From Erysipelotrichaceae bacterium (lineage in GTDB: Bacteria > Bacillota_I > Bacilli_A > ML615J-28 > CAG-313), in the NCBI GenBank assembly GCA_015059015.1, contig SVBG01000001.1:10026-74025 (forward strand): 64,000 nucleotides of DNA, given 5' to 3'. The position numbers and the translations under genes were made by a program. Under the pieces are notes generated by a model. That model ran no database searches and had not been told where the DNA came from. It worked only from the letters and a program-made list of their open reading frames with translations. Every line of letters begins with the position of its first letter. The stretch's first letter is position 1. Shown here one piece after another: positions 1 to 62,325 of this stretch.

Positions 1-3000
1 GGATTTAAAAATGTGGAGAAAATTACAATTTCAGATAGAGTTGAAAATATAGGTTCATATGCTTTTTATAATTGTTCGAATTTAGTTGAAATTGTTATTC
101 CAGATAGTGTTATTGAAATTAAAGCGTGTGCTTTTTTAAATTGCACTGGACTTAATACTATAACTTTAGGTAAAAATATAAAAACTATTTTGGGTAGTAA
201 TTTCGGACAATGCACAAATTTAAAAAATGTATATTTTAATGGAACATTAGAAAATTGGTGTTCGATTGAATTTGAGTTGGATACTGCAACTCCAATGTAT
301 TATGGTGAAATTATTTATATGTTAGATGAAAATAACGAATGGTATGAATTAACTAATGTGGAAATACCTAATACTGTAGCTTCAATAGGTAAATACCAAT
401 TTTATGGGTTCAAAAAAATACTTAGTGTTGATATTTCAAATAGTGTAATAGAAATAAATTCAAATGCTTTTTCAAATTGTACTAGTTTAAAAAATGTTGT
501 AATACCTGATAGTGTTGAAAACATAGGCTCATATGCTTTTTATAATTGTTCGAATTTAGTTGAAATTGTTATCCCAGATAGTGTAGTGAAAATCGGAATT
601 TCTGCTTTTTCAAGTTGCACTAATTTAAAAAATGTAACAATTTCTAACTCAATAACTAGTATTAGCGATCATGCTTTTGCATATTGTAGTAACCTTTGTG
701 AAATTATAATTCCCAAAAATGTAACTATTATTGATAGGTATGCTTTTTTAAATTGTTCGAATTTATTATGTATAGAGATACCAAATACTGTAAAAAGTAT
801 AGGTTCAAGTGCTTTTTCTGGTTGTGATAGTTTAACGAGTGTAATATTCGAAGAAAACAGTCAATTAACAAGTATAGGTAACGAATCGTTCTATCGATGT
901 GACAATCTAATAAGTATTGTAATTTCCGAAAATATAACAAATATTGGAACTTATGCGTTTTACGATTGTGAAAATTTGAAAATTATTTATAATTTATCGG
1001 ATTTAGAATTAACTATTGGTTCTACTGATCATGGTTATGTTGCTTATTATGCAAAATATATTCATAATGAACTTCCAAGAGAAGTATCACTTGAAAAAGA
1101 AGTTGCATATGATGCAACAGTAGATACTCTTGAATTACCTGGAACTGTTACATTTACATATAATGAAGAAAAAAACACTCAAAATGTTACATGGGATACA
1201 AGTACATTTATTGTAAATCAAATTGGTGAACAAGTAATATATGGAATATTTAGTGATGATGAATTATACGATCAATATAACATTAAACGTGGTTACATAT
1301 ATATTACTATCGATGTTTTGCCGTATACATTTTATAATTCAATAGTACCGTCAGAATACACAATAAAAAAATATTACGGAATTACTGATGAAACAACTAT
1401 ACCTACAGTATTTAATGATCTTCCTGTGACAAGAATTGGTGATAATGCATTTGAAAATAATGTAAATTTAACAAATATTTGTATTCCTAATAGTGTTAAG
1501 GTTATTGGTAAAAATGCATTTTCATCGTGCACTAACTTAACTAACGTAGTAATATCAAAAGGAGTAACGTATATTAGTGATTATGCATTTTCATCATGTG
1601 CTAGTTTAACAAATATTGTAATTCCAGAAGGGCTAACTTATATAAATAATTATACATTTTTAAATTGTTCTAATTTAGAAAGCGCAGTAATTCCTGAGGG
1701 AATAACAAGTATAGGAAAAGGTGCTTTTTCATTTTGTAGTAATTTAAAAGACATTAATATGCCCTCTACTTTAACATCTATAGATGAAGAATCGTTTAAA
1801 GGATGTTGTAGTTTGACTCATATCACTATACCTAGTGGAGTGATGCACATTGGTTCTGGTTCATTTTCTGGCTGTAGTAGTTTGATTGAAGCTTCAATTC
1901 CTGAGGGAGTTGAAAGTATTGAGGGAAATACATTTGTACTTTGTGTCAATTTGAAAAGTATACAATTGCCTTCAACTATATTAAAAATAGAAAATAATGC
2001 ATTTACTGGCTGTAGTAACTTGATAAATGTGGAAATTCCTACTGAAGTAACAAAAATAGGAATAGATGCATTTAGAGAGTGTATAAGTTTAACAAGTGTA
2101 TCATTTGAGGCAGGAAGTAAGTTATTAACAATTTGTGATTCTGCTTTTAAAAATTGTAGTAACTTAACAAGTATACAAATCCCTTCAAGTGTAACAAATA
2201 TAGGAATAGACGCATTTGCAGAATGCAATAATTTGAAAAAGGTTGTGTTTGAAACTGGAAGTAATTTAACAACAATTAGTGAATCTACATTTGAAAATTG
2301 TAGTAGTATAGCACATATACAAATACCGAGCGGTGTACAAAGCATAGGTGAAAAAGCATTCTATAATTGCAATAGTTTAGTAAGCGTTGAATTATCAGAT
2401 ACTTTAACTTCTATTGCATCAAGTGCTTTTAGTGATTGTAGTAAATTATATTTAGTTATTAATAATTCTAGTTTGGAATTAGCATTAGGAAGTTTAACAG
2501 GTATTACAAAACAAATTATTAATCGAAATGGAAATGTAATAACAAATGAAGGATATTCCTATATAACTACAAGTGATAACTTTTTATTTGAATATTACAA
2601 TGAGACATATACTTTAGTTGGTTATTTGGGAGAAGAAGAAACAATTATCCTTCCTAGTGAAATAAACGGCTTTAATTACAGTATAAGTAAATTTGCAAAT
2701 GGTTATTGTGAAAATATTATTATTCCGAAGGAAATTACAAGTATCGGATCAAACGCGTTTGCATATAGTAGTAATTTAAAAAATGTTACATTTGAAGAAG
2801 GAAGTCAATTAACAAATATAGGAAGTAAAGCTTTTTATTATTGCAATGGTTTGATGAATATTGAAATTCCAAATAGTGTAATTAGTATTGGGGCTAGTGC
2901 ATTCTATGAATGTAGAAAATTAAATAATTTAACATTACCTATTAGTCTAACTTCAATCAGTGGTTCAACATTTTATAATTGTAGTAGTTTAGCAAATATT

Positions 3001-3384
3001 ACAATTCCTAATAATGTAACAAGTGTGGGGCATGCGGCATTTGAAGGTTGTTCAAGTTTAACAAGTGTATTTTTTGCAGAAAACAGTAAATTAATAAGTA
3101 TTGATACTAATGCATTTAGATATTGTTCAAGTTTAACAAATATTGAATTTCCAGAAGGTTTAAAAAGTGTTGGCCAAATGGCGTTTAGTGGTTGTGACAG
3201 TTTAACAAGTATAGTATTACCTTATAATTTAACTAATATTGGTGTTTATGCTTTTGTTAACTGTGATAATCTAAAAAAAGTTTATAACCTATCTAATTTA
3301 GAACTTACAATTGGTTCTACTGATTATGGTTATGTTGCATATTATGCTGAAGAAATTTATACAAGTTTACCTGATGAAGAATAA
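1..3384 (+). CDS. BspA-type leucine-rich-repeat (LRR_5-like) surface protein, 5'-truncated by the window edge. It has about 23-aa repeats with the NCxxLxxIxIPxSVxxIGxxAF consensus, an internal Big_4-like Ig module (EVAYDATVDTLELPGTVTFTYNEE...VTWDTSTF), and a C-terminal YNLSNLELTIGSTDYGYVAYYA module.
   Basis: The open frame runs from base 1 with no upstream stop, so the gene continues past the window. The repeat consensus is read directly from the translation. The internal module is near-identical to segments of the LRR proteins at 57385 and 12838. Confidence 0.8.
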   Translation, partial: GFKNVEKITISDRVENIGSYAFYNCSNLVEIVIPDSVIEIKACAFLNCTGLNTITLGKNIKTILGSNFGQCTNLKNVYFNGTLENWCSIEFELDTATPMYYGEIIYMLDENNEWYELTNVEIPNTVASIGKYQFYGFKKILSVDISNSVIEINSNAFSNCTSLKNVVIPDSVENIGSYAFYNCSNLVEIVIPDSVVKIGISAFSSCTNLKNVTISNSITSISDHAFAYCSNLCEIIIPKNVTIIDRYAFLNCSNLLCIEIPNTVKSIGSSAFSGCDSLTSVIFEENSQLTSIGNESFYRCDNLISIVISENITNIGTYAFYDCENLKIIYNLSDLELTIGSTDHGYVAYYAKYIHNELPREVSLEKEVAYDATVDTLELPGTVTFTYNEEKNTQNVTWDTSTFIVNQIGEQVIYGIFSDDELYDQYNIKRGYIYITIDVLPYTFYNSIVPSEYTIKKYYGITDETTIPTVFNDLPVTRIGDNAFENNVNLTNICIPNSVKVIGKNAFSSCTNLTNVVISKGVTYISDYAFSSCASLTNIVIPEGLTYINNYTFLNCSNLESAVIPEGITSIGKGAFSFCSNLKDINMPSTLTSIDEESFKGCCSLTHITIPSGVMHIGSGSFSGCSSLIEASIPEGVESIEGNTFVLCVNLKSIQLPSTILKIENNAFTGCSNLINVEIPTEVTKIGIDAFRECISLTSVSFEAGSKLLTICDSAFKNCSNLTSIQIPSSVTNIGIDAFAECNNLKKVVFETGSNLTTISESTFENCSSIAHIQIPSGVQSIGEKAFYNCNSLVSVELSDTLTSIASSAFSDCSKLYLVINNSSLELALGSLTGITKQIINRNGNVITNEGYSYITTSDNFLFEYYNETYTLVGYLGEEETIILPSEINGFNYSISKFANGYCENIIIPKEITSIGSNAFAYSSNLKNVTFEEGSQLTNIGSKAFYYCNGLMNIEIPNSVISIGASAFYECRKLNNLTLPISLTSISGSTFYNCSSLANITIPNNVTSVGHAAFEGCSSLTSVFFAENSKLISIDTNAFRYCSSLTNIEFPEGLKSVGQMAFSGCDSLTSIVLPYNLTNIGVYAFVNCDNLKKVYNLSNLELTIGSTDYGYVAYYAEEIYTSLPDEE

Positions 3385-3403
3385 TATCTATTATAGATAA
3401 AAT

Positions 3404-3455
3404 AAAAAAAGATTTATTGTTAAGAATTTAATTCTTTTCAATAAATCTTTTTGTT
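3404..3455. terminator. Bidirectional rho-independent terminator between the converging LRR gene and the cassette on the minus strand
   Basis: Inverted repeat aaaaagatttattg...caataaatcttttt flanked by A-runs and T-runs on both sides. Confidence 0.6.
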
Positions 3456-3458
3456 TTG

Positions 3459-4157
3459 TTATTTATTCATTTTGTTATAGGCAGTATATACTGCTTCTTT
3501 AGAGATGTTACATCCCATTTTATGGATTGTTATGTTACTTACGATATTAGAGATATGATGTAGGATAAGGTTCATATCTTCTTCATATGGTACTCTTTCT
3601 GTTTGGTTTAGAATTTCAAAGATTGCTTGTTTTTTATCTATTTCTTTAATCCAGTTGTTTTCTGATCTTTCTAAAAAGCAAATACCTTGGATCGGAACTA
3701 GTAGATTTCTACTGATATCATGTTTACCTGAGAATGGTGTTCCTGCTGCATAAAGAGTATTATCTTTATAAATAATAGCAGGTTTATCATCATTTAAGAT
3801 ATATGCATCGCTAAATTCTTCTAACCATAGAGTTGTATGTGTTGATTTACCTGTTCCTGATGGAGCACTAAATAGATATGCTTTATTATCTTTTACTACA
3901 CATGATGAGTGTAGTAAGATTCCATCATGTTGTAAGATGTATTTATAGAATAATTGTCCTAAAAAGATATATTCAATATCTTCAAGTGTAAGATAATGAT
4001 ATGTAACTTTTAATTCATTCATTCTATCTATTGATAAGTCTAATTTAAATGCTGGTTCAATTGTTGTATCTATTAAATATGGTTTAGCTTGTTTAGAGGT
4101 TCTTTCATATTTAGGATTCATTTCAACAATTATACCTGCGATACTGTATTTTGGCAT
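3459..4157 (-). CDS. HPr kinase/phosphorylase C-terminal-domain-like P-loop protein (HprK-like, as in lasso-peptide kinases and HprK-related kinase families)
   Basis: LHSSCVVKDNKAYLFSAPSGTGKSTHTTLWLEEFSDAYILNDD aligns with the HprK C-domain pattern LHGxxVxxxGxGVLIxGxSGxGKSxxALxLIxRGHxLVADD, i.e. Walker A plus a downstream DD. It is the last gene of a three-gene minus-strand operon. Confidence 0.65.
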   Translation of the reverse strand: MPKYSIAGIIVEMNPKYERTSKQAKPYLIDTTIEPAFKLDLSIDRMNELKVTYHYLTLEDIEYIFLGQLFYKYILQHDGILLHSSCVVKDNKAYLFSAPSGTGKSTHTTLWLEEFSDAYILNDDKPAIIYKDNTLYAAGTPFSGKHDISRNLLVPIQGICFLERSENNWIKEIDKKQAIFEILNQTERVPYEEDMNLILHHISNIVSNITIHKMGCNISKEAVYTAYNKMNK

Positions 4158-4167
4158 AGTTTTAAAT

Positions 4168-4611
4168 TTACTTTCTTCTAATTATTTTTTTTATTATTTT
4201 CTTGATTAAATATTTTAAATATTTAATAGGTCTTTTTCTGATTATTTTTTTAACGTATTTTTGATATTCTTTATCGGTGGTAGGTATATATTCCTCCCCA
4301 CGATAGAAACCTTCCATAAGGGCGATGATTTGGCTTCTTTTTACGTTTTTTTCTAACATAAATTGATTATCACCACACATTGTAAATAAATCATCTTTAA
4401 TCCTAATTATACGATGTAATACTAATGTTTTATCATTACGCATATAAAGTACTACATCATGTTTTTTTAAATCATTTGGAGCGACAAGTTTGACTGTATC
4501 TATACGTTCACGAAGAAGTGGTAGCATACTTGTCCCAATTGGTGTTGCTATATAGAAACCATATTTTTCAATGGCTTGTGTATAATCAGTTATCAAGTAG
4601 CTTAGCCTCAA
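4168..4611 (-). CDS. SipW/S26B-type (Ser/His) signal-peptidase-like, or S24-like, peptidase without an N-terminal membrane anchor
   Basis: The motif GTSMLP (catalytic Ser box), then HDVVLYMRNDKTLVLHRIIRI, matches the SipW-type pattern GSMxP...GDxIxF...VxHRI. The C-terminal tail is Lys/Arg-rich. The gene overlaps the upstream PqqD gene by about 26 nt. Confidence 0.55.
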   Translation of the reverse strand: MRLSYLITDYTQAIEKYGFYIATPIGTSMLPLLRERIDTVKLVAPNDLKKHDVVLYMRNDKTLVLHRIIRIKDDLFTMCGDNQFMLEKNVKRSQIIALMEGFYRGEEYIPTTDKEYQKYVKKIIRKRPIKYLKYLIKKIIKKIIRRK

Positions 4612-4852
4612 CTAACTTATTGATAAATGTTGTTACATCGCGTGTAGCAAGTTCATTATCAATACCATATTCTTTTGCAACTTTATTAATTATTTCTTCT
4701 AAAGTAGTTTCTGTTTCTAAGCATTTCCAAATAAAAGCACCTACATGATTTAAATTAATAAGTCCTTTAAATTCTAATGATGCTTTGCCTACTGGAACAA
4801 CTACATAATTGTCAGCAACACTTCTTAGCATAAAGCCTTCTTTTATTTTCAT
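4586..4852 (-). CDS. PqqD-family peptide chaperone, a RiPP recognition element (RRE)
   Basis: MKIKEGFMLRSVADNYVVVPVGKASLEFKGLINLNHVGAFIWKCLETETTLEEIINKVAKEYGIDNELATRDVTTFINKLVEAKLL fits the PqqD fold pattern (NxVGAFIWxxLDGxxTLEEIxxxLxxEYxVDxExAxxDVxxFLxxLxExGLI). The ATG at 4852 has GAGGTG 6 nt upstream. The GTG at 4861 in the ORF track is less likely the true start. Confidence 0.7.
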   Translation of the reverse strand: MKIKEGFMLRSVADNYVVVPVGKASLEFKGLINLNHVGAFIWKCLETETTLEEIINKVAKEYGIDNELATRDVTTFINKLVEAKLLDN

Positions 4853-4967
4853 ATTAATCACCTCATTTTTATATATACATTATATCATATTATTTATTTA
4901 AAGCAAAATATTTAATCATTAAGTTAAAATAGAGTATACTAAATAACAAACAAGGAGGTTAAAAATC

Positions 4968-6353
4968 ATGGATGAATTATTACAAGAAATTATAAAGATT
5001 ATAAAAGAGACAACTGATATAAGTACTCTTCATGATTTACTCTATAGTTATCATAAAAATGATATCGCAAGATGTTTTGAATACTTAACAGATGAGGAGT
5101 TAGAAAAAGTATATCAAACATTTAGTGAACAAGAATTATCAGAGATATTTACATATCTAGATGATGTTAAAGAATATATTGAAGATTTAGAAACTGAAAC
5201 AGCTGCTGATTTAATTGAACTAATGGATTCAGATGACGCAAAAGAAATTCTAGAAGAATTAACAGAAGAAGATCGTAATGAAATCTTAGAATTAATGGAT
5301 GAAGAAGTTGTTGATGATATTGAACTTTTAACTAGTTATGATGAAGATGTAATCGCAAGTTATATGACTAATAACTTTATAGCAATAAAAAAAGATTATA
5401 CAATCAAACAAGCTATGAAAACAGTGGTCGAAGAAGCATCTACTAATGATAATTTTACAATTATATATGTTGTAAATGAAGATGATACTTTATATGGAAC
5501 TATAGAATTAAAAGAGCTAATTAAAGCAAGAGCAACTGACTCTTTAGAAGATATTATAAAAAAATCATATCCATCTATTTTAGATATGACAAGTTTGAAT
5601 GACGCATTAATATTAGTAAAAGATTATGAAATAGATTCTATTCCAATTGTTAATGAAAAAAATGTTTTATTAGGCGTTGTAACTACTAATGACTTAATTG
5701 AAGTTATTGATGATGAATTATCTGATGACTACGCAAAATTAGCTGGTCTAACAAGCGAAGAAGAACTAGAAGAATCAACATTTAAATCTGTTAAAAAACG
5801 TATTCCTTGGCTATGTGCATTACTTGTTCTTGGATTAATTATATCTTTAGTAATGGGACTTTTTGAATCAGCAATTGTTGCGGTACCGGCAATAGTATTC
5901 TTCCAATCAATGATTCTTGGTATGGGTGGTAATGTTGGTACTCAAAGTTTAGCTGTTACTATTCGTGCGATAAGTGATGAAGAAATATCAAAAAAAGAAG
6001 TAAGAAGACTTGTTTTTAAAGAAATAAGAATTGCTTTTTTTAATGGTATTTTAATCGGAATAATGTCTTTTGTTGTAGTATCAGCATATTTAATGATAAC
6101 ACATACAGTAATTGATCCAAGTATTGGTTATAATATATTTGATATATTTAAAACATCAGGTGTAGTATCAATTAGTCTTTTAATTAGTATGGTTATATCT
6201 GGACTAATAGGTACACTTATTCCAATTATCTTACAAAAATGTAAAATAGATCCAGCTGTTGCAAGTGGTCCGTTTATTACAAGTATTAATGATATTATGG
6301 CAATAGTTGTATACTATGGTATAACATTAATAGTATTTGCATATTTAATTTAA
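4968..6353 (+). CDS. mgtE: Magnesium transporter MgtE (N-terminal domain, tandem CBS domains, C-terminal 5-TM domain)
   Basis: Acidic helical N-domain, CBS-like middle region and hydrophobic C-terminus ending in the SGPFITSINDIMAIVVYYG region typical of MgtE. The RBS AAGGAGG lies 8 nt upstream. Confidence 0.9.
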   Translation: MDELLQEIIKIIKETTDISTLHDLLYSYHKNDIARCFEYLTDEELEKVYQTFSEQELSEIFTYLDDVKEYIEDLETETAADLIELMDSDDAKEILEELTEEDRNEILELMDEEVVDDIELLTSYDEDVIASYMTNNFIAIKKDYTIKQAMKTVVEEASTNDNFTIIYVVNEDDTLYGTIELKELIKARATDSLEDIIKKSYPSILDMTSLNDALILVKDYEIDSIPIVNEKNVLLGVVTTNDLIEVIDDELSDDYAKLAGLTSEEELEESTFKSVKKRIPWLCALLVLGLIISLVMGLFESAIVAVPAIVFFQSMILGMGGNVGTQSLAVTIRAISDEEISKKEVRRLVFKEIRIAFFNGILIGIMSFVVVSAYLMITHTVIDPSIGYNIFDIFKTSGVVSISLLISMVISGLIGTLIPIILQKCKIDPAVASGPFITSINDIMAIVVYYGITLIVFAYLI

Positions 6354-6439: not shown

Positions 6440-6514
6440 TGGTAGGGCTAGGTGGATTCGAACCAACGAATGACGGAGTCAAAGTCCGTTGCCTTACCGC
6501 TTGGCTATAGCCCT
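6440..6514 (-). tRNA. tRNA-Gln (anticodon UUG), CCA encoded
   Basis: The reverse complement folds as AGGGCTA acceptor stem, anticodon arm ACGGA-CTTTGAC-TCCGT (anticodon TTG), T-arm GGTGG-TTCGAAT-CCACC, acceptor TAGCCCT-A-CCA. Length is 75 nt. Confidence 0.85.
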
Positions 6515-12243: not shown

Positions 12244-12360
12244 ATGAAAAAAGAATTTGAAACTCCAACAATAGAAATTATTTACTTTGACGATCAAATC
12301 AATTTAGGACCTACCGATGAATGGTATGATTCTAATGTTGACATGGGTGGTTGGATTTAA
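12244..12360 (+). CDS. Conserved 38-aa peptide MKKEFETPTIEIIYFDDQINLGPTDEWYDSNVDMGGWI. It is paralogue 1 of 3 and a candidate RiPP precursor or secreted/regulatory peptide.
   Basis: The RBS AAGGAGAATAG lies 5 nt upstream. Comparison with the other two copies shows about 10 synonymous versus 4 nonsynonymous codon changes. The stop overlaps the next ATG (TAATG). Confidence 0.6.
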   Translation: MKKEFETPTIEIIYFDDQINLGPTDEWYDSNVDMGGWI

Positions 12361-12527
12361 TGTCTAAACTATTAAAATATTTTTTAATAGGTTTTGTAGC
12401 AATTGCAGCAATTGTACTTGCATGTACAGTCTATAGTTGTTCGTTAGATGATGACACTGATAAAGATAAAGATGATGAAATTGGTGAATTCTACGACGAA
12501 AATGTAGATCCAGATGGTTGGATTTAA
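12360..12527 (+). CDS. 55-aa peptide with an N-terminal TM helix, an acidic linker and the C-terminal motif YDENVDPDGWI shared with the 38-aa peptides
   Basis: MSKLLKYFLIGFVAIAAIVLACTVYSCSLDDDTDKDKDDEIGEFYDENVDPDGWI. Its start is translationally coupled to the upstream peptide (TAATG overlap). A terminator follows. Confidence 0.5.
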   Translation: MSKLLKYFLIGFVAIAAIVLACTVYSCSLDDDTDKDKDDEIGEFYDENVDPDGWI

Positions 12528-12837: not shown

Positions 12838-15800
12838 ATGAAGAAACTATTATTTAAATTATTATGGGTTTTTATATTAGTATTTTCTTTAACATTTGGT
12901 TGTCTAATAGCATTAGATAATAAACAATCAAATGTTAAAGCTACGGATGTAACTAATCCTAAAATTGAAATTCTAAAAAATAATGTATCTTATAGCGATA
13001 GTATTTATATTGCGTATGCTGTTGCGTGTGAAGGTTTTGAAATTAATAAAAATACTATTAACCTATTATTTTGGAACACAACACAAGAAAATTATCTTAA
13101 AGGCACAGAAGATTCTTTAGGTACAAGTAAAGGTAAAACAAACATTAATGGTAAGCAATGTTTAGTATTCTATTCAGAAGGTTTAGCAGCTAAACATATG
13201 ACAGATGATTTATATTCAAGAGCATATGTTGTGGTAGATGGTGTTGAATATTACTCCGAAGTAGTAAAATTTAGTGTTCTTGAATATGTTTATAAAATGA
13301 AAGAAGAAGCAACACTTAATCCACATCAACAAAGATTGTTTGATACATTACTACAATATGGTGGTGCAGCTCAAGATAATTTCGATTATAATACTAATAA
13401 GAAAGCTGATGCAACTTATTATAAAATTGCAGTAAATGAAGGGATTCTTCCTGATGGATTTAAACACGGAAGATACCAATTAAATGAAAAAGTAGTAATC
13501 AAACCATTATCTAAACCTGGTCAAAAATTTTCTCACTGGTTAGATCAAAATGGTATAATTGTTAGTTATGATAAAGAATTTGAAATCACAGTAACAGATA
13601 AAAATGAATATACTGCAATTTATAAAGATATAACTAATGTATCTAGTCAATTAAAGATGGAATATGAAGTAACATATGACGCAACAGTTGATGATTTAGA
13701 TTTACCAAATGCTGTAAATATAACAATCGGTGAAGAAACATATACACATGAAATTGTATGGGACTTAACAACATTTATGGAAAATAAAGTTGGTAAACAA
13801 AAACTATATGCAAGTTTTGTAGATGAAACTCTTTATACTGAATATAACCTTACTAAAGAAGATATTTATGTCGAAGTAAATGTATTACCATATACATATG
13901 AGTTAGATCAAGAAACTGGAAACTTTACACTTACAGGATACTATGGAACTGACGAATTAGTTGAAATCCCATCTATTTATAAAAATACAACTGTTACAAA
14001 GATTGCTACAAAAGCATTTAATGAAGTAATGACTTTAAAAGAAGTAGTAATCCCTACAACAATTGAAGAAATCGGTCTTGGTGCATTCTATTATTGTGAT
14101 AATATTGAAAAAATGACAATTCCTTTTACAGGTAGAAAATTAACTGACTATTTAACAAATAATTATTCACATTTTGGGTATATTTTTGGTGCTGTTTCAT
14201 ATGAAAATCAAAAAGATTTTGTTCCATTAAAATTAAAATCTATTACTTTAATAGAAGGTTCAACAATTATTGGAGTTGGCGCATTTAATGGATTAAGTCA
14301 AGTTGAAGAATATAATATTCCTGCTTCACTAGAATATATTTATGCATATGCATTTAAAGATTGTACGTCATTAACAAGTTTTTATATTAATGAAAATCTA
14401 AAAGCAATTGGACTTGATGCTTTTGTTGGATGCACTAATTTGAAAAGAGTAGATGTTGATAGTATGGAAGTTTTATTTTCTATAGATTGTGCTCAAGGAT
14501 GGTCGGGCGGATCTGAATTTTACACACCATTACAAAATGGAGCCGATTTATATATTAATGGGGTATTAATTACCGAAATTACTTTACCTTCATATGCTGT
14601 TAGAATAAAAGGTTTATTAGTTGGTTGTTCTAGTATTGAAAAAATTATTATACCTAATTATATTACTGATATAAGTTATGCGTTTAGCAATATGCAAAAT
14701 TTAAAAGAGGTAATATTTGAAGAAGATAGTACTTTAGATAGAATTGGTAGTTATGCATTCAGTGGTTGTATATCTTTATCTAATATTGAACTTCCTAATT
14801 CTATTATAACTTTAGGATGCGGAGCATTTGAATCTTGCGAAAGTATTTATACTATTGATATCCCAGAAGGAGTGACAAATATTGAAAGTTATGCTTTTAG
14901 TAATTGCATCAATTTAAATAGCATCACACTTCCAAGTAGCTTAAATGAAATAGGTTTAATTGCTTTTGAACGTTGTAGTAATTTAACAAGTATAGAAATT
15001 CCAAATAATGTTTCGGTAATAAAATATGGAACTTTTATGTACTGTTCAAATTTAATTTCTATTTTGCTACCATCTAATTTAACTACAATTGAAGGTAATG
15101 CTTTCTATGGTGCTGGTTTAACTAGCATAGAAATTCCATCACGTGTAAGAACTATAGATTCAAATGCTTTTTATGCTTGTGAATCATTATACACAATTTA
15201 CAATAACTCAGAACTTAATTTAGAAATCGGTAGCACTGATAATGGATACTTAGCATATTATGCTAAAGAAATTACTGATAAGGATGGAAACATTTATACT
15301 AATGATGGATATACATATGTTACAAACGATGATTTTGTATTTGAGTATTATAATGAAGAATATAAATTAATTTCGTATATTGGTGATAAGGAAACAGCTA
15401 CATTACCATTAGATGTAAATGGAAATCCTTACAAAATCTATAATTTTAAAGGGTTAAAAAATGTAATAATTCCTGATGGTATTACTGTAATAGATGATGA
15501 TGCATTTTATGAATGTCAAACTTTATCAAGCATAACTATTCCAAACAGTGTAATATCAATTGGAGCAAGTGCATTCGAAAGTTGCATAAATTTATTAAGT
15601 ATAACAATTCCTAGTAGTGTAACAAGTATTGGAGCAGATGCATTTAATGATTGTGAATGTGAAATAATTTGGGATAATCCAACGATTGAAAATATTGGAT
15701 ACTGTGCATTTAATGGTTATAAAGGTAAAAACATAGTAATTCCACAAACTGTAAAAACTATTGATAGCTATGCATTTTATAATTTATATAATGTAGTAAA

Positions 15801-16758
15801 TGTATATTATCTTGGAACTATTGAATCATGGAATAATATTGTATTTAACACTAATACGGCAAACCCAATGTGTTCGGCTGAACATTTCTTTATGAAAAAT
15901 ACACAAAATGAATGGTTTGAATTAATTGAAATTAAATTACCTAATACAATTACTTCCATTGGTGCTTATGCGTTCTCAGGATTTGAAAATTTAGATAGCA
16001 TAACAATACCAAGTAGTGTAACAAGTATTGGATCGGGCGCATTTAATGATTGTGTATGTAAAATAATTTGGGATAATCCTACAATCGAAACGATAGGATC
16101 TAGTGCGTTTAAGAGTTATAAAGGAACAAGTATAACAATTCCTTCAAGTGTAACAACAATTAATTCTTATGCATTTGAAAACGCTACATGTGAAATATTA
16201 TGGGATAATCCTACAATCGAAACGATAGGATCTAGTGCATTTGAATATTATAGAGGAACAAGTATAACAATTCCTTCAAGCGTAACAAGTATTGGATCAA
16301 GTGCATTTAGCAATGTAACATGTGAAATATTATGGGATAATCCAACAATAGAAACGATAGGATCAAGTGCATTTGCAAATTATAAAGGAAATAGTATAAC
16401 AATTCCTTCAAGCGTAACAAATATTGGATCAAGTGCATTTTATGGTTGCGAATGCGAAATAATTTGGGATAATCCAACAATAAAAACTTTAGGTTTTGGT
16501 TCATTTATGGGTTATATAGGTAAAAGTATTGTTATTCCAAGTAGTGTAACTACTATTTCATCTTATGCATTTTCTGATTGCGGAAATTTGCAAACTATAA
16601 TAATACCTATAAGTGTTACTAATATTGGAGGTAGTGTATTTAAAGGTTGTACAAATTTAACAATTTATTATGAAGGAACTGAAATTCCAACAAATTGGAA
16701 TTCTAACTGGAATCCTTCTAATTGTTCTGTGGTTTTAGGATATAAAGAAGAAAACTAA
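12838..16758 (+). CDS. Secreted multidomain BspA-type LRR protein, paralogue B. It has a signal peptide, a conserved N-terminal domain of about 250 aa, a Listeria-Bacteroides-type (Flg_new-like) repeat, a Big_4-like Ig domain, LRR_5-type repeats and four C-terminal CE(I/L)(I/L)WDNPTIE repeats.
   Basis: Signal peptide MKKLLFKLLWVFILVFSLTF. The N-terminal domain is homologous to those at 27845 and 57385 (e.g. LAAKHMTDDLYSRAYV, LEYVYKMKEEA, YGGAAQDNFDYNT, ATYYKIAV). The Flg_new-like segment is KPLSKPGQKFSHWLDQNG and the Big_4-like segment is EVTYDATVDDLDLPNAVNITIGEETYTHEIVWDLTTF. Confidence 0.85.
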   Translation: MKKLLFKLLWVFILVFSLTFGCLIALDNKQSNVKATDVTNPKIEILKNNVSYSDSIYIAYAVACEGFEINKNTINLLFWNTTQENYLKGTEDSLGTSKGKTNINGKQCLVFYSEGLAAKHMTDDLYSRAYVVVDGVEYYSEVVKFSVLEYVYKMKEEATLNPHQQRLFDTLLQYGGAAQDNFDYNTNKKADATYYKIAVNEGILPDGFKHGRYQLNEKVVIKPLSKPGQKFSHWLDQNGIIVSYDKEFEITVTDKNEYTAIYKDITNVSSQLKMEYEVTYDATVDDLDLPNAVNITIGEETYTHEIVWDLTTFMENKVGKQKLYASFVDETLYTEYNLTKEDIYVEVNVLPYTYELDQETGNFTLTGYYGTDELVEIPSIYKNTTVTKIATKAFNEVMTLKEVVIPTTIEEIGLGAFYYCDNIEKMTIPFTGRKLTDYLTNNYSHFGYIFGAVSYENQKDFVPLKLKSITLIEGSTIIGVGAFNGLSQVEEYNIPASLEYIYAYAFKDCTSLTSFYINENLKAIGLDAFVGCTNLKRVDVDSMEVLFSIDCAQGWSGGSEFYTPLQNGADLYINGVLITEITLPSYAVRIKGLLVGCSSIEKIIIPNYITDISYAFSNMQNLKEVIFEEDSTLDRIGSYAFSGCISLSNIELPNSIITLGCGAFESCESIYTIDIPEGVTNIESYAFSNCINLNSITLPSSLNEIGLIAFERCSNLTSIEIPNNVSVIKYGTFMYCSNLISILLPSNLTTIEGNAFYGAGLTSIEIPSRVRTIDSNAFYACESLYTIYNNSELNLEIGSTDNGYLAYYAKEITDKDGNIYTNDGYTYVTNDDFVFEYYNEEYKLISYIGDKETATLPLDVNGNPYKIYNFKGLKNVIIPDGITVIDDDAFYECQTLSSITIPNSVISIGASAFESCINLLSITIPSSVTSIGADAFNDCECEIIWDNPTIENIGYCAFNGYKGKNIVIPQTVKTIDSYAFYNLYNVVNVYYLGTIESWNNIVFNTNTANPMCSAEHFFMKNTQNEWFELIEIKLPNTITSIGAYAFSGFENLDSITIPSSVTSIGSGAFNDCVCKIIWDNPTIETIGSSAFKSYKGTSITIPSSVTTINSYAFENATCEILWDNPTIETIGSSAFEYYRGTSITIPSSVTSIGSSAFSNVTCEILWDNPTIETIGSSAFANYKGNSITIPSSVTNIGSSAFYGCECEIIWDNPTIKTLGFGSFMGYIGKSIVIPSSVTTISSYAFSDCGNLQTIIIPISVTNIGGSVFKGCTNLTIYYEGTEIPTNWNSNWNPSNCSVVLGYKEEN
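16051..16580 (+). repeat. Four near-identical in-frame tandem repeats of 132 bp (44 aa), with a fifth diverged copy at 15652-15780
   Basis: The unit is C(E/V)C(E/K)I(I/L)WDNPTIETIGSSAF-x-YKGxSITIPSSVT(S/N)IGSSAF. The copies are close to DNA-level identity, e.g. tgggataatcc(t/a)acaat(c/a)gaaacgataggatc(t/a)agtgc. Confidence 0.75.
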
Positions 16759-27725: not shown

Positions 27726-27842
27726 ATGAAAAAAGAATTTGAAACTCCCACAATAGAAATCATCAATTTTGATGAAAACATTAATTTAGGACCAAATGAC
27801 GAATGGTACGATTCAAATGTTGATATGGGTGGGTGGATTTAA
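27726..27842 (+). CDS. Conserved 38-aa peptide MKKEFETPTIEIINFDENINLGPNDEWYDSNVDMGGWI (paralogue 2 of 3), translationally coupled to the downstream LRR gene
   Basis: The RBS GGAGGAAAATT lies 4-5 nt upstream. The peptide is identical to the copy at 57266, with 2 synonymous DNA differences. The stop TAA lies 2 nt before the ATG of the LRR gene. Confidence 0.6.
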   Translation: MKKEFETPTIEIINFDENINLGPNDEWYDSNVDMGGWI

Positions 27843-27844: not shown

Positions 27845-30800
27845 ATGAAAAAGAATTTATTTAAATTATTATTTGTAATGTTATTCGTATTAACAGTTTC
27901 ATTTACATTTGTTTATAATAATAATACAAATGTTTTAGCTGATGAAACAGAAACTGAAGAAGTAGTAGAACCTTCACTTAATATATATAAAAAGAATATA
28001 TCATATGCAAGTGAAATCTATATTATGTATGCAGTTTCATATGAAGGAATAGATGTAACAACTACTCCTGTTAAAATGTTATTCTATAATTCTGTTCAAG
28101 ATGAATATACAACACAAACTGCATCATATGTTGCATCATCTCAAGGTAGTGTAAATATTGGTGGTGTAAGTTGTCAAATATTTGCATCTAATGGACTTGC
28201 AGCGAAACAAATGACAGATGATATCTACGCAAGAGCATATGTAGAAATAGATGGACAAACTATTTATTCAGAAGTAGTAAAATATAGTGTGTTAGAATAT
28301 TATTATGAAATTAAAGAAGCAGGTACTGTTTCTACAAATATCTTAAACTTACTTGAAGCAATGGTTAATTATGGTGCCGCAGCACAAATTAACTTTAACT
28401 ATAATACTGAAAAATTAGCTAACGCAACATATTATAAAGTAAGTGTAGAAAACGCAGTATTATCTGATGGCTTTACAAGTGGAAGATTTAAGGCTGAAGA
28501 ACAAGTAACACTTATTGCACCTGAAAAAGAAGGTTATGTATTTAAAAATTGGACTAATGCAAATGATGATGTAGTATCAACTGATGTAACTTATACATTA
28601 ACAGTAACAAAAGATGAAACGTTAACTGCTAATTATGAAGAAGAAGCAGGTGTAATACTAACTCTTTCAAAGGAAGCAGCGTATGACGCAACTCCTTCTA
28701 CACTTAATCTTCCATCAACTGTAACATTTGATTATAATAACGAAACAGTAACAGAAAATGTTACATGGGACACAACTTCATTTGTAGTAAATCAAATCGG
28801 TAAACAAAAACTATATGGAACATTATCAAATGACTCATATAAAGTAAATGAACTTAGCATTGAAATAGATGTGCTTCCATATACATTTAGTTTAAATGAA
28901 GAAACTAATGAATATTCTATTACTAAATATTATGGAACATCTGAAGAAGAAACTATTCCTGAAACATTTAATAATGTATCTATTGTAGAATTAAAGCAAT
29001 ATGCTTTTGAAAATGTTTTAACACTTAAGAATTTAATTATTCCCACTACAATTAATAAAATAGAACAATCTGCGATTTATGGATGTAATAGTCTTGAAAG
29101 TATTACTATACCTTTTATTGGAGATTGTTTAGATAGTTATAGAACTTTTGGATATATTTTTGGAGCGAGTTCCGCCTCAAATCATTCTACCTATATTCCA
29201 ACAAGTTTAAAAAATTTAACGATCCTAAATAGTGTAACAAACAGTGAATATAGTGCATTCAAAAATTGTAGTAGTTTAACAAATGTATATTATGAAGGAA
29301 CAATAGAAACATGGTGTAATATTGACTTTACTTATCATGAGTCTAACCCGATGTATTATGCAGAAAATTTTTATATGAAAAATGAGGAAGGTAATTGGTA
29401 TGAAGTAACTGAAATTTCAATTCCTGATACTATTACTGAAATTGGTGCTTATCAATTTGTTGGATTTGATAATTTAACAAGTATAACAATTCCAGAAGGA
29501 GTAACAAATATCGAGGCTTTTGCATTTAATAATTGTAATAGTTTGACGAATGTATATTATGAAGGAACAATAGAGTCTTGGTGCAATATGTCGTTTAATA
29601 ATTATTCCTCTAACCCGATGTATTATGCAAATTATTTCTATATGGAAAATGAAGAAGGTAATTGGGACGAAGTGACAGAAATAACAATACCTAACACAAT
29701 TACTAAAATAGGCAATAATCAATTTAGTGGATTCAAAAATGTAAAAAGCATAATAATTTCGGAAGGAATAATGAGTATTGAAAAATATGCGTTTGGTTAT
29801 TGTGATAATTTAACAAATATAGAACTTTCAACCACTATAACAAGTATAGGAGAAGGTGCGTTCTATAGATGTAGAAGTTTAGTAAGTCTAGAAATCCCAG
29901 AAGGAGTAAAAAATATAGAATCTTATACTTTTTCTGATTGCAATAGTTTAACAAGTATAACAATTCCGAATAGTGTAACAAGTATTGGTTCACATGTTTT
30001 TGAGAATTGTATTAGTTTAATAAGCATAACTATTCCAAATAGTGTAACAAGTATAGGAAGTGGTACATTCAGTGGATGTAGTGTTTTAGAAAATATAGAA
30101 CTTTCAAATACTATAACATTTTTTGGAACTAGTGTATTTTATAAATGTAGTAGTCTGACAAGTATAATAATACCAAATTGTGTGACAAGGATTAATTCAT
30201 CTGACTTCTCAGGATGCACAAGTTTAACAAGCATAACAATCCCAAGTAGTGTAACAAGTATCATTTCTTCTGCCTTTCATGGTTGTACAAGTTTAACAAA
30301 TGTATATTATGAAGGATCAATAGAAGACTGGTGCAATATCTCATTTAGTTCATATTTTTCTAATCCGATGTATTATGCAGAACATTTCTATATGAAAAAT
30401 GAAGAAGATAATTGGCATGAAGTAACAGAAATAATAATACCAAATACAATTACTGAAATAGGTTATTGTCAATTCTATGGATTTGAAAATATAACAAGCA
30501 TAACAATCCAAGAAAGTGTAACAAGTATTGTAGATTGTGCGTTTTCTTGGTGTAGTAGTTTAACAAATATAACACTTCCAAATAGTGTAACAAGTGTCGG
30601 ATTAGAGGCTTTTAGTGGATGTAGTAGTTTAACAAGTATAGAAATTCCAAATAGTGTAACAAGCGTTGGAAATAGTGTCTTTTCTTGGTGTAGTAGTTTA
30701 ACAAATATAACACTTCCAAATAGTGTAACAAGTATTGTAGAAGGCGCGTTCTTTAATTGTAGTAGTTTAACAAATATAACACTTCCAAATAGTGTAACAA

Positions 30801-31228
30801 GTATCGGATCATATGCATTTAATGGATGTAGCGGTTTAACAAGTATAACTATTCCAAATAGTGTAACAAGTATCGGCGAAGGTGCCTTCTATAATTGTAG
30901 TGGTTTATTGAGTATAGAAATACCTGAAGGAGTAACAAGTATTGAATCTTCTACTTTCTATGGTTGTAGAAGTTTAACGAGTATTACACTTCCAAATACT
31001 GTAACGACTATAGAATCTTCTACTTTCTATGGTTGTAGAAGTTTAACGAGTATTACACTTCCAAATACTGTAACGACTATAGAATCTAAAGCATTTTATA
31101 GTTGCGCCAATTTAACTTATGTATATTATGTAGGGACTGAAGAAGAATGGAATACAATTATAATAGAATCATCTAATGATTTCTTAATTAATGCTACTAT
31201 TCATTATGAATATGTAAAAAATGAATGA
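27845..31228 (+). CDS. Secreted multidomain BspA-type LRR protein, paralogue C: signal peptide, conserved N-terminal domain, Flg_new-like and Big_4-like modules, then an LRR_5 array of more than 25 repeats
   Basis: Signal peptide MKKNLFKLLFVMLFVLTVSFTFVYN. The LRR consensus is (G/N)CSSLTSITIPNSVTSIGxxAF. The preferred start is the ATG at 27845; the ORF track uses the GTG at 27833, which lies inside the peptide gene. Confidence 0.85.
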   Translation: MKKNLFKLLFVMLFVLTVSFTFVYNNNTNVLADETETEEVVEPSLNIYKKNISYASEIYIMYAVSYEGIDVTTTPVKMLFYNSVQDEYTTQTASYVASSQGSVNIGGVSCQIFASNGLAAKQMTDDIYARAYVEIDGQTIYSEVVKYSVLEYYYEIKEAGTVSTNILNLLEAMVNYGAAAQINFNYNTEKLANATYYKVSVENAVLSDGFTSGRFKAEEQVTLIAPEKEGYVFKNWTNANDDVVSTDVTYTLTVTKDETLTANYEEEAGVILTLSKEAAYDATPSTLNLPSTVTFDYNNETVTENVTWDTTSFVVNQIGKQKLYGTLSNDSYKVNELSIEIDVLPYTFSLNEETNEYSITKYYGTSEEETIPETFNNVSIVELKQYAFENVLTLKNLIIPTTINKIEQSAIYGCNSLESITIPFIGDCLDSYRTFGYIFGASSASNHSTYIPTSLKNLTILNSVTNSEYSAFKNCSSLTNVYYEGTIETWCNIDFTYHESNPMYYAENFYMKNEEGNWYEVTEISIPDTITEIGAYQFVGFDNLTSITIPEGVTNIEAFAFNNCNSLTNVYYEGTIESWCNMSFNNYSSNPMYYANYFYMENEEGNWDEVTEITIPNTITKIGNNQFSGFKNVKSIIISEGIMSIEKYAFGYCDNLTNIELSTTITSIGEGAFYRCRSLVSLEIPEGVKNIESYTFSDCNSLTSITIPNSVTSIGSHVFENCISLISITIPNSVTSIGSGTFSGCSVLENIELSNTITFFGTSVFYKCSSLTSIIIPNCVTRINSSDFSGCTSLTSITIPSSVTSIISSAFHGCTSLTNVYYEGSIEDWCNISFSSYFSNPMYYAEHFYMKNEEDNWHEVTEIIIPNTITEIGYCQFYGFENITSITIQESVTSIVDCAFSWCSSLTNITLPNSVTSVGLEAFSGCSSLTSIEIPNSVTSVGNSVFSWCSSLTNITLPNSVTSIVEGAFFNCSSLTNITLPNSVTSIGSYAFNGCSGLTSITIPNSVTSIGEGAFYNCSGLLSIEIPEGVTSIESSTFYGCRSLTSITLPNTVTTIESSTFYGCRSLTSITLPNTVTTIESKAFYSCANLTYVYYVGTEEEWNTIIIESSNDFLINATIHYEYVKNE

Positions 31229-60300: not shown

Positions 60301-62325
60301 TTACCTTATACATTTAGTTTAAACCAAACAAATAATGAATATACAATTACAAAATATTATGGAAGTGCTAGAGAAGTAATTATACCTTCAGTATTCAATG
60401 ATATGCCAATTGTTGTTATTGGTGGGTCTGCATTCCGTAAGTGTAGCAGTTTAACAAGTATAGTTATTCCCAATAGTGTGACAAGTATAAAATATCGTGC
60501 ATTTCAGGATTGTACTAGTATGACAAGTATATTGCTACCATCAAGTATAATAAGTATAGAAGAAGTTTCATTCTCAGGTTGTAGTAGTTTAATGGATGTG
60601 TACTACAACGGAACTATTGAAGATTGGTGTAATATTACTTTTGGTGATTATAGTAGTGGTGCCAGTGCTAGTAATCCGATGTATTATGCACAACACTTTT
60701 ATATGAAAGACTCTAATAATGAGTATTACGAAGTAATAGAAATAGATATACCTAATACAATAATAAGTATAGGTGCATATCAATTTGAAGGGTTTGAAAA
60801 TGTAGTTAATGTAATTCTTCCTGATAGTATAACAGGAATAAATCGTTATGCCTTCTATGGTTGTAGTAATTTAGCAAGTATAAAAATACCATCAGAAGTA
60901 AAAGGGGTTGGAGAAAATGCCTTCTATGGTTGTAGTAGTTTAGCAAGTATAAAAATACCATTTGGAGTAACAAGTATAAAAGACGAAACTTTTTATGGTT
61001 GTAGTAATTTAATAAGTATAGAAATGCCATTAGGAATAACAAGTATAGGAGTAGCCGCTTTCCGAGGATGCAGTAGTTTAACAAGTATAGAAATCCCATC
61101 TGGGGTAACGACTATAGGATCTTATGCTTTCTATGGATGTAGAAGTTTAAAAAACATTGTGATTCCAGAAGGGGTAACAACAATAGATTCATGGACATTC
61201 TCTGGTTGCGGGTTAAAAAATATCACACTTCCAGAAAGTTTAAAATATATATCTACTTATGCGTTCTTAACTTGCAGTAGTTTAACAAATATTGTAATTC
61301 CAGAAGGTGTAACAAGTATAGGAGATTCTGCATTCAGTGGATGTAGTAGTTTGACAAGTATAGAAATTCCATCTGGAGTAACAAGTATTGGTTATGAAAC
61401 ATTCTCTGGATGTAGTAGTTTAGCAAGTATAAAAAACTTATCAGGAATAACAAGTATAGGAGATTCTGCATTCAGTGGATGCAGTAGTTTAACAAGTATA
61501 GAGATTCCATCTGGAGTAACAAGTATAGGAGATTCTGCATTCAGTGGATGTAGTAGTTTAACAAGTATAGAAATCCCATCTGGGGTAACGACTATAGGAA
61601 ATTCTGTATTTAAAGGTTGTAATAGTTTAATAAGTATAAAAATTCCATCTGGAGCAATAAGTATAGGAAATTCTGCATTCAATGGTTGCAGCAGCTTAAC
61701 AAGTATAGAAATCCCATCTTTGGTAACAAGTATAGGAAATTACGCATTCAATGGTTGTAGCAGCTTAGTAAGTATAGAAATACCATTTGGAGTAACAACT
61801 ATAGGAAATTCTACATTTAGTGGATGTAATAGTTTAACAAGCATAGTAATTCCAATTGGCATAACAACTATAGGAAATTATGCATTCTCTGGCTGTAGTA
61901 GTTTGACAAGTATAACAATCCCTGAAAGTGTAATAAGTATAGGATATTATGCATTTAATATTTGCACTAACCTTAAAACAATTTATAATCTATCCGATCT
62001 AGAATTAAGTATTGGATCTACTGATAATGGTTATATTGCGTATTACGCAAAATATATCCATACGGAGCTTCCAAGAGAAGTTGTTCTTCAAAAAGAAGTT
62101 GCCTATGATACAACAGTTGATGCTCTAGATTTACCTGAAACTGTAACATTTACATATATTGGTGAAGAAATTACTGAAAGTATTGCTTGGGAAACAAGTA
62201 CATTTATTGTTAATCAAATTGGTGAACAAGTAATTTATGGTGTATTTAGTGATGATGAATTGTATGATAAGTATAATATTAAACGTGGTGGAATTAGTAT
62301 CATAGTAACTGTGTTACAAGAATAG
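57385..62325 (+). CDS. Secreted multidomain BspA-type LRR protein, paralogue D (1646 aa). It reads as two complete LRR units in tandem, each ending with a YNLS(N/D)LEL(T/S)IGSTDNG...Big_4-like module.
   Basis: The N-terminal 330 aa are about 90% identical to paralogue C. The internal module YNLSNLELTIGSTDNGCVAYYAKYIHNELPRE...VTWDTSTFVVNQIGEQVIYG is nearly identical to the module in the 5'-truncated gene at 1-3384, and it recurs at the C-terminus. Confidence 0.85.
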   Translation: MKKNLFKLLFVMLFLFTVSFTFVYNNNTDVLADEIETEEVVEPSLNIYKKNISYASEIYIMYAVSYEGIDVTTNPVKMLFYNSVQDEYTPSTASYVVESTGSATISGVSCQIFASNGLAAKQMTDDIYARAYVEIAEETIYSDVVKYSVLEYYYEIKEAGTVSTNILNLLEAMVNYGAAAQTNFNYNTEKLANATYYKVNVENTVLPDGFTSGRFKAEEQVMLTAPEKEGYIFTGWTNSNEELVSTDVTYTLTVTQDETLTANYEAEVAVTPVTLTLTKEAAYDATADTLDLPSTVTFNYNNETVTENVTWDTTSFVVNKIGKQKLYGTLSNDSYKVNELSIEIDVLPYTFSLNEETNEYSITKYYGTSEELNLPASFNSIKVTSVGLYAIRSNNIRILRIPKEIINFDENAFFGPKEISELYYYGTLEDWCNIKFYNYIANPMGCQDHNTFQIVYMLDDKNEFYSLNGIIIPDSVEYIGNSQFYNMDGLTSVFISKNVKTIEENAFSGCLKLENVVFEEDSVLTEIKSGAFGSYTKISSINLPKSLEKIGSNAFSGCQTLTSITLHNNIASIGYSAFFGCISLCDVYFDGNIEGWMNITFGDERSNPVYSSNKIFMKNDDNEYYEVNEIQIPSNIDTINNFTFSGFNFIENISLPDNIITIGDGAFRECSGLTSINFSNNLKTIGESAFYKCINLEKIEIPYSVQNINYSAFSYCTNLLEVVFEENSNLNKLGSYAFRACSSLKSINIPNNITKIDIYTFYDCVNLIKISIPNTIEEICDYAFYNCNQLLNVEFESTSRLTKIGQYAFYNCTSLQSFSIPTGVKLIQACTFTNCISLLNIVIPSSITYLSGFNGCVNLKVIYNLSNLELTIGSTDNGCVAYYAKYIHNELPREIALEKEVAYDATLDTLELPETVTFTYNEEEITQNVTWDTSTFVVNQIGEQVIYGTFSDDELYDQYNIKRGYLYTTIDVLPYTFSLNQTNNEYTITKYYGSAREVIIPSVFNDMPIVVIGGSAFRKCSSLTSIVIPNSVTSIKYRAFQDCTSMTSILLPSSIISIEEVSFSGCSSLMDVYYNGTIEDWCNITFGDYSSGASASNPMYYAQHFYMKDSNNEYYEVIEIDIPNTIISIGAYQFEGFENVVNVILPDSITGINRYAFYGCSNLASIKIPSEVKGVGENAFYGCSSLASIKIPFGVTSIKDETFYGCSNLISIEMPLGITSIGVAAFRGCSSLTSIEIPSGVTTIGSYAFYGCRSLKNIVIPEGVTTIDSWTFSGCGLKNITLPESLKYISTYAFLTCSSLTNIVIPEGVTSIGDSAFSGCSSLTSIEIPSGVTSIGYETFSGCSSLASIKNLSGITSIGDSAFSGCSSLTSIEIPSGVTSIGDSAFSGCSSLTSIEIPSGVTTIGNSVFKGCNSLISIKIPSGAISIGNSAFNGCSSLTSIEIPSLVTSIGNYAFNGCSSLVSIEIPFGVTTIGNSTFSGCNSLTSIVIPIGITTIGNYAFSGCSSLTSITIPESVISIGYYAFNICTNLKTIYNLSDLELSIGSTDNGYIAYYAKYIHTELPREVVLQKEVAYDTTVDALDLPETVTFTYIGEEITESIAWETSTFIVNQIGEQVIYGVFSDDELYDKYNIKRGGISIIVTVLQE
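60830..61930 (+). repeat. Array of near-identical 69-bp (23-aa) LRR units, (S/N)GCSSLTSIEIPSGVTSIG(D/N)SAF, resembling a variable-number tandem repeat
   Basis: DNA-level near-identity across about 15 consecutive units, e.g. ggatgtagtagtttaacaagtatagaaat(t/c)ccatctgg(a/g)gtaac. Confidence 0.65.

Follow-up and report, generated by a model that had tools for sequence, protein, structure and literature searches.

A three-gene cassette in a gut Bacilli genome is probably a reduced LPP-type module for the maturation of unlinked 38-residue peptides

In a 64,000-nucleotide (nt) stretch from an Erysipelotrichaceae bacterium (contig SVBG01000001.1, positions 10,026 to 74,025 of the forward strand; the whole stretch is hereafter termed the window), three minus-strand genes encode a PqqD-type recognition element (RRE) for peptides made on ribosomes and modified after translation (RiPPs), a peptidase related to S26/SipW enzymes, and a P-loop protein with the HprK/PEPCK fold. 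This cassette is probably a minimal module of the Linear Polyphosphorylated Peptide (LPP) type for peptide maturation, and it would act in trans on 38-amino-acid (aa) peptides encoded elsewhere in the window. Judged from its sequences, the locus appears to be a reduced and divergent variant of the LPP-type system, belonging to an unstudied sister clade. The DNA of the window is 27% G+C, and its closest matches in the genome collection are metagenome-assembled genomes (MAGs) of uncultured gut "Bacilli bacterium."

A cassette resembling the LPP pathway

The LPP pathway is encoded by lppA-K-B-S-D-N of Paenibacillus alginolyticus (Popov et al., Nat Commun, May 2026, PMC13381572). In that system, the RRE LppB presents the precursor LppA to the SipW-like peptidase LppS (catalytic residues S29/H68/D93), which cuts the cytoplasmic precursor only when LppB is present. 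The HprK-like LppK polyphosphorylates Ser3 of the core, giving a linear phosphopeptide, and deletion of LppK abolishes phosphorylation. The core cluster also includes the MsbA-like exporter LppD and the NTP_transf_5 NTP-transferase LppN, and about 126 LPP clusters, mostly from Bacillales, have been described (PMC13381572).

The three genes of the cassette are as follows.

4586..4852, minus strand: RRE of the PqqD family, 88 aa (the open reading frame [ORF] list starts it at GTG 4861); assigned by comparison with Pfam, NCBIfam, the PDB and sequence similarity network (SSN) cluster 4
4168..4611, minus strand: LppS-like Ser-His-Asp peptidase of the SpI/SipW type with no membrane anchor, 147 aa (142 aa if started at TTG 4596); predicted to remove the leader
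3459..4157, minus strand: LppK-like P-loop protein of the PF27840 (ScmC) family, HprK/PEPCK fold, 232 aa; predicted peptide serine kinase

The ORF listing contains this trio where the preliminary description of the window had placed it, at 3459-4157 (232 aa), 4168-4611 (147 aa, TTG start) and 4586-4861 (91 aa, GTG start), and with the same spacing: the RRE and peptidase genes overlap by 26 nt, and 10 nt separate the peptidase and kinase-like genes. The most likely start of the RRE gene is the ATG at 4852, which has GAGGTG in front of it, and the TTG at 4596 is a possible alternative start for the peptidase gene. On identical metagenome contigs, gene callers give lengths of 88 aa for the RRE and 142 aa for the peptidase, matching these two starts.

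The cassette shares with LPP clusters a discrete RRE, an anchorless SipW-like Ser/His/Asp leader peptidase, a PF27840 HprK-like kinase and the lack of a cyclase. As in LPP clusters, the gene for the SpI/SipW-like peptidase is colocalized and overlaps with that for the discrete RRE, the leader carries an aromatic-xx-P-x-hydrophobic motif, and a secreted-protein gene lies beside the precursor gene. The two differ in gene order (B-S-K in the cassette, K-B-S in LPP), in the disposition of the precursors, which in the window are multicopy, lie away from the cassette and are coupled to LRR_5 genes, and in the host, an uncultured low-G+C gut Bacilli MAG and not a member of the Bacillales. The preliminary description had proposed that an RRE, a kinase and a leader peptidase would together yield a phosphorylated linear peptide, and this scheme is well supported by homology to the LPP enzymes. 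It had also considered the product to be a new RiPP class and HprK-like kinases to act in RiPP biology only as lasso-peptide tailoring enzymes; the class is already described, because the scheme is that of LppB, LppS and LppK, and LppK is a counterexample to the second claim (PMC13381572).

Several observations weigh against an LPP-type assignment. Identity to the tested LPP enzymes is low (24% for LppK and 32% for LppS), and the RRE falls outside the LPP RRE clade, grouping by its scores with the SSN cluster 4 "RRE others." In the window peptides the leader has Px6F spacing, with Phe in place of Tyr, as opposed to Px9Fx[T/A] in LPP, and where LPP precursors read YxxPxVLxHQxIxFETxxS with a core Ser at position 3, the window peptides read FETPTIEIIxFDD and have no FETxxS. 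The TEDVITTSG motif of most relatives of these peptides is also missing from the window subfamily. Finally, no precursor gene lies beside the cassette, and the window has neither an LppD exporter nor an LppN NTP-transferase, both of which are found in relatives.

The recognition element and lasso-peptide systems

The PqqD-type assignment of the RRE is borne out by its match to Pfam PqqD (E = 3.5e-18). Its top NCBIfam match is lasso_PqqD_Bac (2.7e-11, under the cutoff of that model), and its sequence matches in the PDB include TbiB1 (5v1u, 9e-6) and a "PqqD family protein" (9x8z_B, 7e-5). The RRE aligns over its full length, at 40 to 46% identity and 77 to 89 bits, with the "RRE others" of SSN cluster 4, versus 30 to 41 bits with LPP and lasso RREs; its scores against eight LPP RREs (30 to 39 bits) are no better than those against lasso RREs. 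In Supplementary Data 1 of PMC13381572, SSN cluster 4 is an unstudied group (Desulfosporosinus, Dehalobacter and Anaerocolumna) of peptidases paired with "RRE others."

The best curated matches of the RRE are lasso B1 models, and the peptide leader resembles the lasso YxxPxL motif (PMC13381572), as might be found in a decayed lasso-peptide cluster that had lost its cyclase and B2 protease. Such an origin is very improbable: homologues of the lasso cyclase and B2 protease were found neither in the window nor in 80 species loci (phmmer with PbaC and PbaB2), all three proteins have kept invariant catalytic residues across hundreds of species, and the kinase is of the LppK type and not the lasso type. 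Paeninodin-type lasso clusters (PadeK/ThcoK, B1 RRE) resemble the cassette in having a discrete PqqD RRE for a (Y/W)xxPx(L/I) leader and a precursor-directed kinase of the HprK fold, but the window lacks their Asn-synthetase-like cyclase and transglutaminase B2, with no Asn_synthase or Transglut_core3 match in Pfam scans. The absence of a lasso cyclase, a B2 protease and an ABC exporter, noted in the preliminary description, extends to the entire 64-kb window, in which Pfam scans (and phmmer for the cyclase and B2) detected no lasso cyclase, B2 protease, ABC_membrane exporter or NTP_transf_5 protein. The ABC protein at 46302 was ruled out as an exporter for the cassette, being of the ABC-F type without a membrane domain.

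The P-loop protein

The P-loop protein belongs to Pfam family PF27840 (ScmC) and has an HprK/PEPCK fold that resembles PEPCK as much as HprK. It aligns with LppK over 205 aa, nearly its full length, at 24% identity (E = 5e-15), and with the kinases of complete A-K-B-S-D-N clusters of gut Firmicutes at 32% identity over 221 aa. Within the reference LPP cluster of P. alginolyticus (taken as locus L098), LppK is a PF27840 protein, whereas the kinase of the adjoining lasso cluster is a PF07475 protein, which the window protein matches at the P-loop only. The patterns of curated-profile matches of LppK and LppS are the same as those of the corresponding window proteins. On the basis of family, full-length alignment and fold, the P-loop protein is predicted to be an HprK-like kinase of the LppK type. 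Of the earlier assignment to HPr kinases, the fold was upheld, but the Hpr_kinase_C part was not, as the protein did not match the HPr kinase/phosphorylase profiles (PF07475 and TIGR00679) and falls into PF27840.

The P-loop protein could instead perform some other ATP-dependent chemistry or serve as a scaffold, such that the product would not be a phosphopeptide. Its limited identity to LppK, the scores that fall under the cutoffs of every curated kinase model, the fold common to PEPCK as much as HprK, and the lack of a conserved Ser at the LPP position in the window peptides would all accommodate this alternative. It is nonetheless fairly unlikely, in that Walker A and LNDD-type motifs are invariant in the family and the protein shares its Pfam family and profile-match pattern with LppK, an enzyme required for phosphorylation.

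The SynChlorMet (SCM) proteins ScmC and ScmD supply the best curated match of the P-loop protein (TIGR04249, 36.7 bits versus a cutoff of 125) and a weak match of the RRE (TIGR04248, 27.8 bits versus a cutoff of 100). Both scores are far under the cutoffs, and the ScmE/F radical SAM/SPASM genes of that system are absent; a literature search on ScmC and SynChlorMet returned nothing relevant.

The peptidase

The peptidase has the S24/S26 fold and SipW-type motifs (GxSMxP, HR and a GDN-type Asp), and its structure model contains no transmembrane segment, in line with its earlier description as a soluble SipW/S26-type enzyme. It is 32% identical to LppS, and its putative triad, Ser28/His66/Asp81, aligns with the mutationally validated S29/H68/D93. 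The C-terminal helix is basic and amphipathic. The catalytic residues of all three cassette proteins are kept across hundreds of species.

The fold and these motifs are also those of the Bacillus subtilis SipW and archaeal/endoplasmic reticulum (ER) type of signal peptidase I. The window protein is not a member of the SipW type I signal peptidases: it has no membrane anchor and scores under the family cutoffs (NF046067, 22.4 bits versus 190; TIGR02228, 27.5 bits versus 51.85), and by analogy with LppS it would be cytoplasmic and RRE dependent. A dedicated SipW-like signal peptidase for the neighboring surface proteins, unrelated to peptide maturation, would account for the SipW-type motifs and for the recurrence of surface-protein genes as neighbors. 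We consider this highly improbable given the missing transmembrane segment, the overlap of the peptidase gene with the RRE gene and the conservation of that pair, and the RRE-dependent cleavage of a cytoplasmic precursor by the homologue LppS (PMC13381572).

Precursor peptides and predicted maturation

Candidate substrates had been proposed to lie elsewhere in the window, and three 38-aa peptide genes were found there, with a fourth just outside, together with one longer paralogue.

12244..12360, plus strand: precursor peptide 1, 38 aa, MKKEFETPTIEIIYFDDQINLGPTDEWYDSNVDMGGWI; matched by the leader hidden Markov model (HMM) with E = 4.7e-12 and called as a gene on metagenome contigs
12360..12527, plus strand: paralogue of 55 aa whose N terminus has a transmembrane or lipoprotein-like segment and whose C-terminal motif is that of the precursors (…EFYDENVDPDGWI)
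27726..27842, plus strand: precursor peptide 2, 38 aa, MKKEFETPTIEIINFDENINLGPNDEWYDSNVDMGGWI; leader HMM
57266..57382, plus strand: precursor peptide 3, 38 aa, identical in protein sequence to peptide 2; leader HMM

The fourth 38-aa gene lies about 5 kb to the left of the cassette, immediately beyond the window edge (15603-15719 of locus L001). The leader of these peptides is (F/Y)xxPxIExxxF (Px6F), and this leader peptide family accounts for 93 unannotated clusters in the protein collection. Their first 15 residues are homologous to peptides encoded immediately 5' of kinase genes in many loci, and the kinase gene is immediately preceded by a gene for a same-leader peptide in L028, L036, L062, L064, L081, L086, L087-89 and L093-95. 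The leader HMM does not detect LppA. Within the family, the window peptides form a subfamily in which (D/E)xINLGP…DSNVDxGGWI replaces the common TEDVITTSG start of the core. The 38-aa peptides are very probably the substrates of the cassette.

The start of the 55-aa paralogue overlaps the stop of precursor 1 (TAATG). The paralogue has a possible lipobox (VLAC), an acidic linker and the C terminus …YDENVDPDGWI, with Glu at the position of the Ser in the precursors, and it has no Pfam match; it resembles a membrane-tethered copy of a RiPP core. Elsewhere, lipoprotein-like proteins encoded just 5' of precursor genes (L062, 8030-8824; L042, 6899-7609) end in …DDPNWSGIY and …EDPNWTKPY, which recall the acidic-P-x-W C termini of precursor cores. 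The radical SAM enzyme encoded at 11466-12161, beside peptide 1, was rejected as a modifying enzyme: it is NrdG2 (214 bits, cutoff 131), its gene is the only radical SAM gene near the cassette, and NrdD is encoded at 17708-20065.

By homology to the LPP pathway, maturation would begin when the RRE binds the precursor leader at its N-terminal (F/Y)xxPxIE strand, after which the complex would dock on the N-terminal helix of the soluble peptidase. Ser28/His66/Asp81 would then cut shortly past the invariant Phe15, possibly after F-D-D/E, and the LppK-like enzyme would phosphorylate a core hydroxyl residue at the expense of ATP. As the sole invariant hydroxyl residue after Phe15 in the GGWI subfamily, the Ser of DSNVD is the leading candidate for the phospho-acceptor; Glu takes its place in the peptide P0212 as well as in the 55-aa paralogue. 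Maturation would thereby yield an acidic, linear phosphopeptide, roughly 20 residues long, with GGWI at its C terminus. Placing the cleavage site and phospho-acceptor by alignment to the LPP motif FET↓xxS was rejected because the leader spacing differs and does not transfer to the window peptides.

An LPP-type cassette might have its true precursor elsewhere in the genome, with the 38-aa ORFs acting as upstream ORFs or accessory peptides of the LRR_5 genes. A gap of 2 nt separates the peptide stop from the LRR_5 start, the GGW codons (GGTGGGTGG) make up a sequence like a Shine-Dalgarno site for the downstream gene, the peptides are 7 to 53 kb away from the cassette, and their subfamily is without the TEDVITTSG motif. 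This arrangement is quite unlikely, considering that the first 15 residues are homologous to those of peptides abutting kinase genes in complete clusters (leader HMM E of ~5e-12). Moreover, the GWI C terminus is also kept in the 55-aa paralogue, which no gene closely follows, and conservation therefore acts at the protein level.

Association with surface proteins

The LRR_5 genes concerned are listed below.

27845..31228, plus strand: BspA-type LRR_5 surface protein, with its ATG 2 nt past the stop of precursor 2 (LRR_5, 1.7e-179; junction sequence); its functional link with precursor 2 is inferred
57385..62325, plus strand: BspA-type LRR_5 surface protein, with its ATG 2 nt past the stop of precursor 3 (LRR_5, 1.6e-257; junction sequence)
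12838..16758, plus strand: BspA-type LRR_5 surface protein whose gene follows those of precursor 1 and the 55-aa paralogue (LRR_5, ORF)
13..3384, plus strand: 3' part of a 1,608-aa LRR_5 surface-protein gene, convergent with the cassette, whose own 38-aa precursor gene is just past the left window edge

All four LRR_5 genes have a 38-aa peptide gene upstream, and the other giant ORFs of the window do not. The fourth peptide adjoins its LRR_5 gene as peptides 2 and 3 do, such that the gap is 2 nt in three of the four cases. The regions 5' of peptide genes 2 and 3 (27560-27725 and 57100-57265) are nearly identical; because of this and the identity of the two peptides, the unit of peptide and LRR_5 gene appears to have been duplicated as a block.

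In all other contexts examined, a gene for a protein with a signal peptide (Peptidase_C1, Big_2, Flg_new_2 or of no known family) adjoins the precursor gene, as in L088 (5100-7925), L093 (5768-7981), L081 (6535-9750) and L008 (14240-15763). Partners in other lineages are Big_2, Flg_new, Peptidase_C1 and GHL10 secreted proteins, and a gene for a 573-aa signal-peptide protein lies directly upstream of lppA itself (L098, 4937-6658). The phosphorylated peptide might serve the co-encoded surface protein as a ligand, an anchor or a partner in maturation, because the precursor genes are translationally coupled to or beside LRR_5 genes and the paralogue, putatively routed through the Sec or lipoprotein pathway, displays (D/E)xNVDPxGWI. 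That precursor genes in the contexts examined always lie beside a secreted- or surface-protein gene is a concrete lead to function. It is conceivable, if on balance doubtful, that the cassette represents a large sister family of LPP, spread over gut Clostridia, Bacilli and Acholeplasmataceae (at least 570 species), with peptides that are cell-surface components and not antibiotics; if so, LPP-type RiPPs would gain a testable function.

Distribution and gene neighborhoods

The P-loop family comprises 3,531 clusters in the protein collection and at least 570 species matches in the genome collection; neighborhoods were counted in the best 80 of these species loci with 10 kb of flank. The RRE is encoded in 42 and the peptidase in 23 of the 80, with at least two gene orders, and a recognizable precursor is present in only nine. 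The "orphan" state noted earlier for the cassette, with no precursor gene adjoining it, is thus real but typical of its branch, and it calls for caution in genome-mining tools that expect precursors beside enzymes. Recurrent neighbors in the 80 loci are genes for an SLH protein (21 loci), DHFR, GHL10 and Big_2/Flg_new secreted proteins, and sometimes NTP_transf_5 or an ABC exporter. In one Clostridia lineage (L023, L029, L030, L037, L044 and 16 further loci), the kinase-RRE pair is conserved beside a divergent SLH-domain gene, with DHFR downstream and housekeeping genes (pyrH, frr and uppS) around it; no precursor is recognizable within 10 kb.

When metagenome loci were instead chosen by the peptide alone (79 loci, of which 45 had flanks of at least 5 kb), 34 of the 45 carried one or more of the five LPP-type genes, and 16 carried K, B and S together; 18 of the 79 contain two or three precursors. 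The cassette thus co-occurs with the peptide family and never with a cyclase, the outcome expected under the preliminary description.

Complete A-K-B-S-D-N clusters of gut Firmicutes (L087-89, L100-L172), whose precursors read MK(E/K)xYExPxxEIVEFxxEDVITTSG, match the window in leader family, RRE type, peptidase and ScmC-type kinase. They differ in having their own adjacent precursor, an ABC exporter and NTP_transf_5, and they often lie in capsule loci, as does the complete cluster in L087-89; the window has B-S-K only and a divergent core (…DSNVDxGGWI). The three-enzyme logic of LPP would therefore also be present in a clade that is separate in RRE and leader and very common in uncultured gut Firmicutes, and this sister clade would be reducible to B-S-K, with no exporter or NTP-transferase within a 64-kb window and with scattered precursors.

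Anaerocolumna encodes, between radical SAM and kinase genes, a Cys-rich peptide that shares this leader. Inside a capsule locus of Anaerocolumna xylanovorans, a hybrid cluster (L096, 7621-13420) encodes an RRE, a radical SAM enzyme, a 58-aa Cys-rich peptide (YxxPxIEIVEL leader), a ScmC-type kinase, an S26-like peptidase, an ABC exporter and NTP_transf_5.

Flanks of the cassette and other features of the window

Two noncoding features flank the cassette.

3400..3452, minus strand: AT-rich hairpin and U-run past the last cassette gene; probable terminator (RNA folding)
4853..4967, no strand: intergenic region common to the cassette and the divergent mgtE, with the ribosome-binding site of the RRE gene (GAGGTG) and, presumably, the promoters of both (sequence)

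The cassette had been described as an operon bounded by a divergent mgtE promoter region and a bidirectional terminator. The divergent mgtE gene is present at 4968-6353 (plus strand), and a hairpin lies at 3400-3452 between the convergent genes, downstream of the kinase-like gene; it folds with a ΔG of -17.9 kcal/mol (z = -5.9), and none of 200 shuffled sequences was equally stable. This AT-rich hairpin is a probable terminator, but a consensus terminator scan, which needs G+C, called no terminator and did not flag it. A promoter scan of 4853-4967 returned only weak promoter-like matches, no more frequent than expected by chance.

A reading of the region as anti-phage defense was rejected, there being no meaningful PADLOC match. 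Minus-strand genes for tRNA-Gln and tRNA-Tyr lie at 6440-6608, and the 54-aa ORF at 6452-6616 is an artifact of them. A 4,557-aa ORF at 32149-45822 has no Pfam match at E values up to 1e-5, and in a 1,040-aa protein encoded at 53853-56975, Flg_new and Flg_new_2 repeats accompany a MACPF/perforin domain. An AbiEii nucleotidyltransferase toxin gene and an overlapping DUF6088 gene (51723-53256), located in a stretch of low G+C content and negative GC skew, likely constitute a type IV toxin-antitoxin pair.

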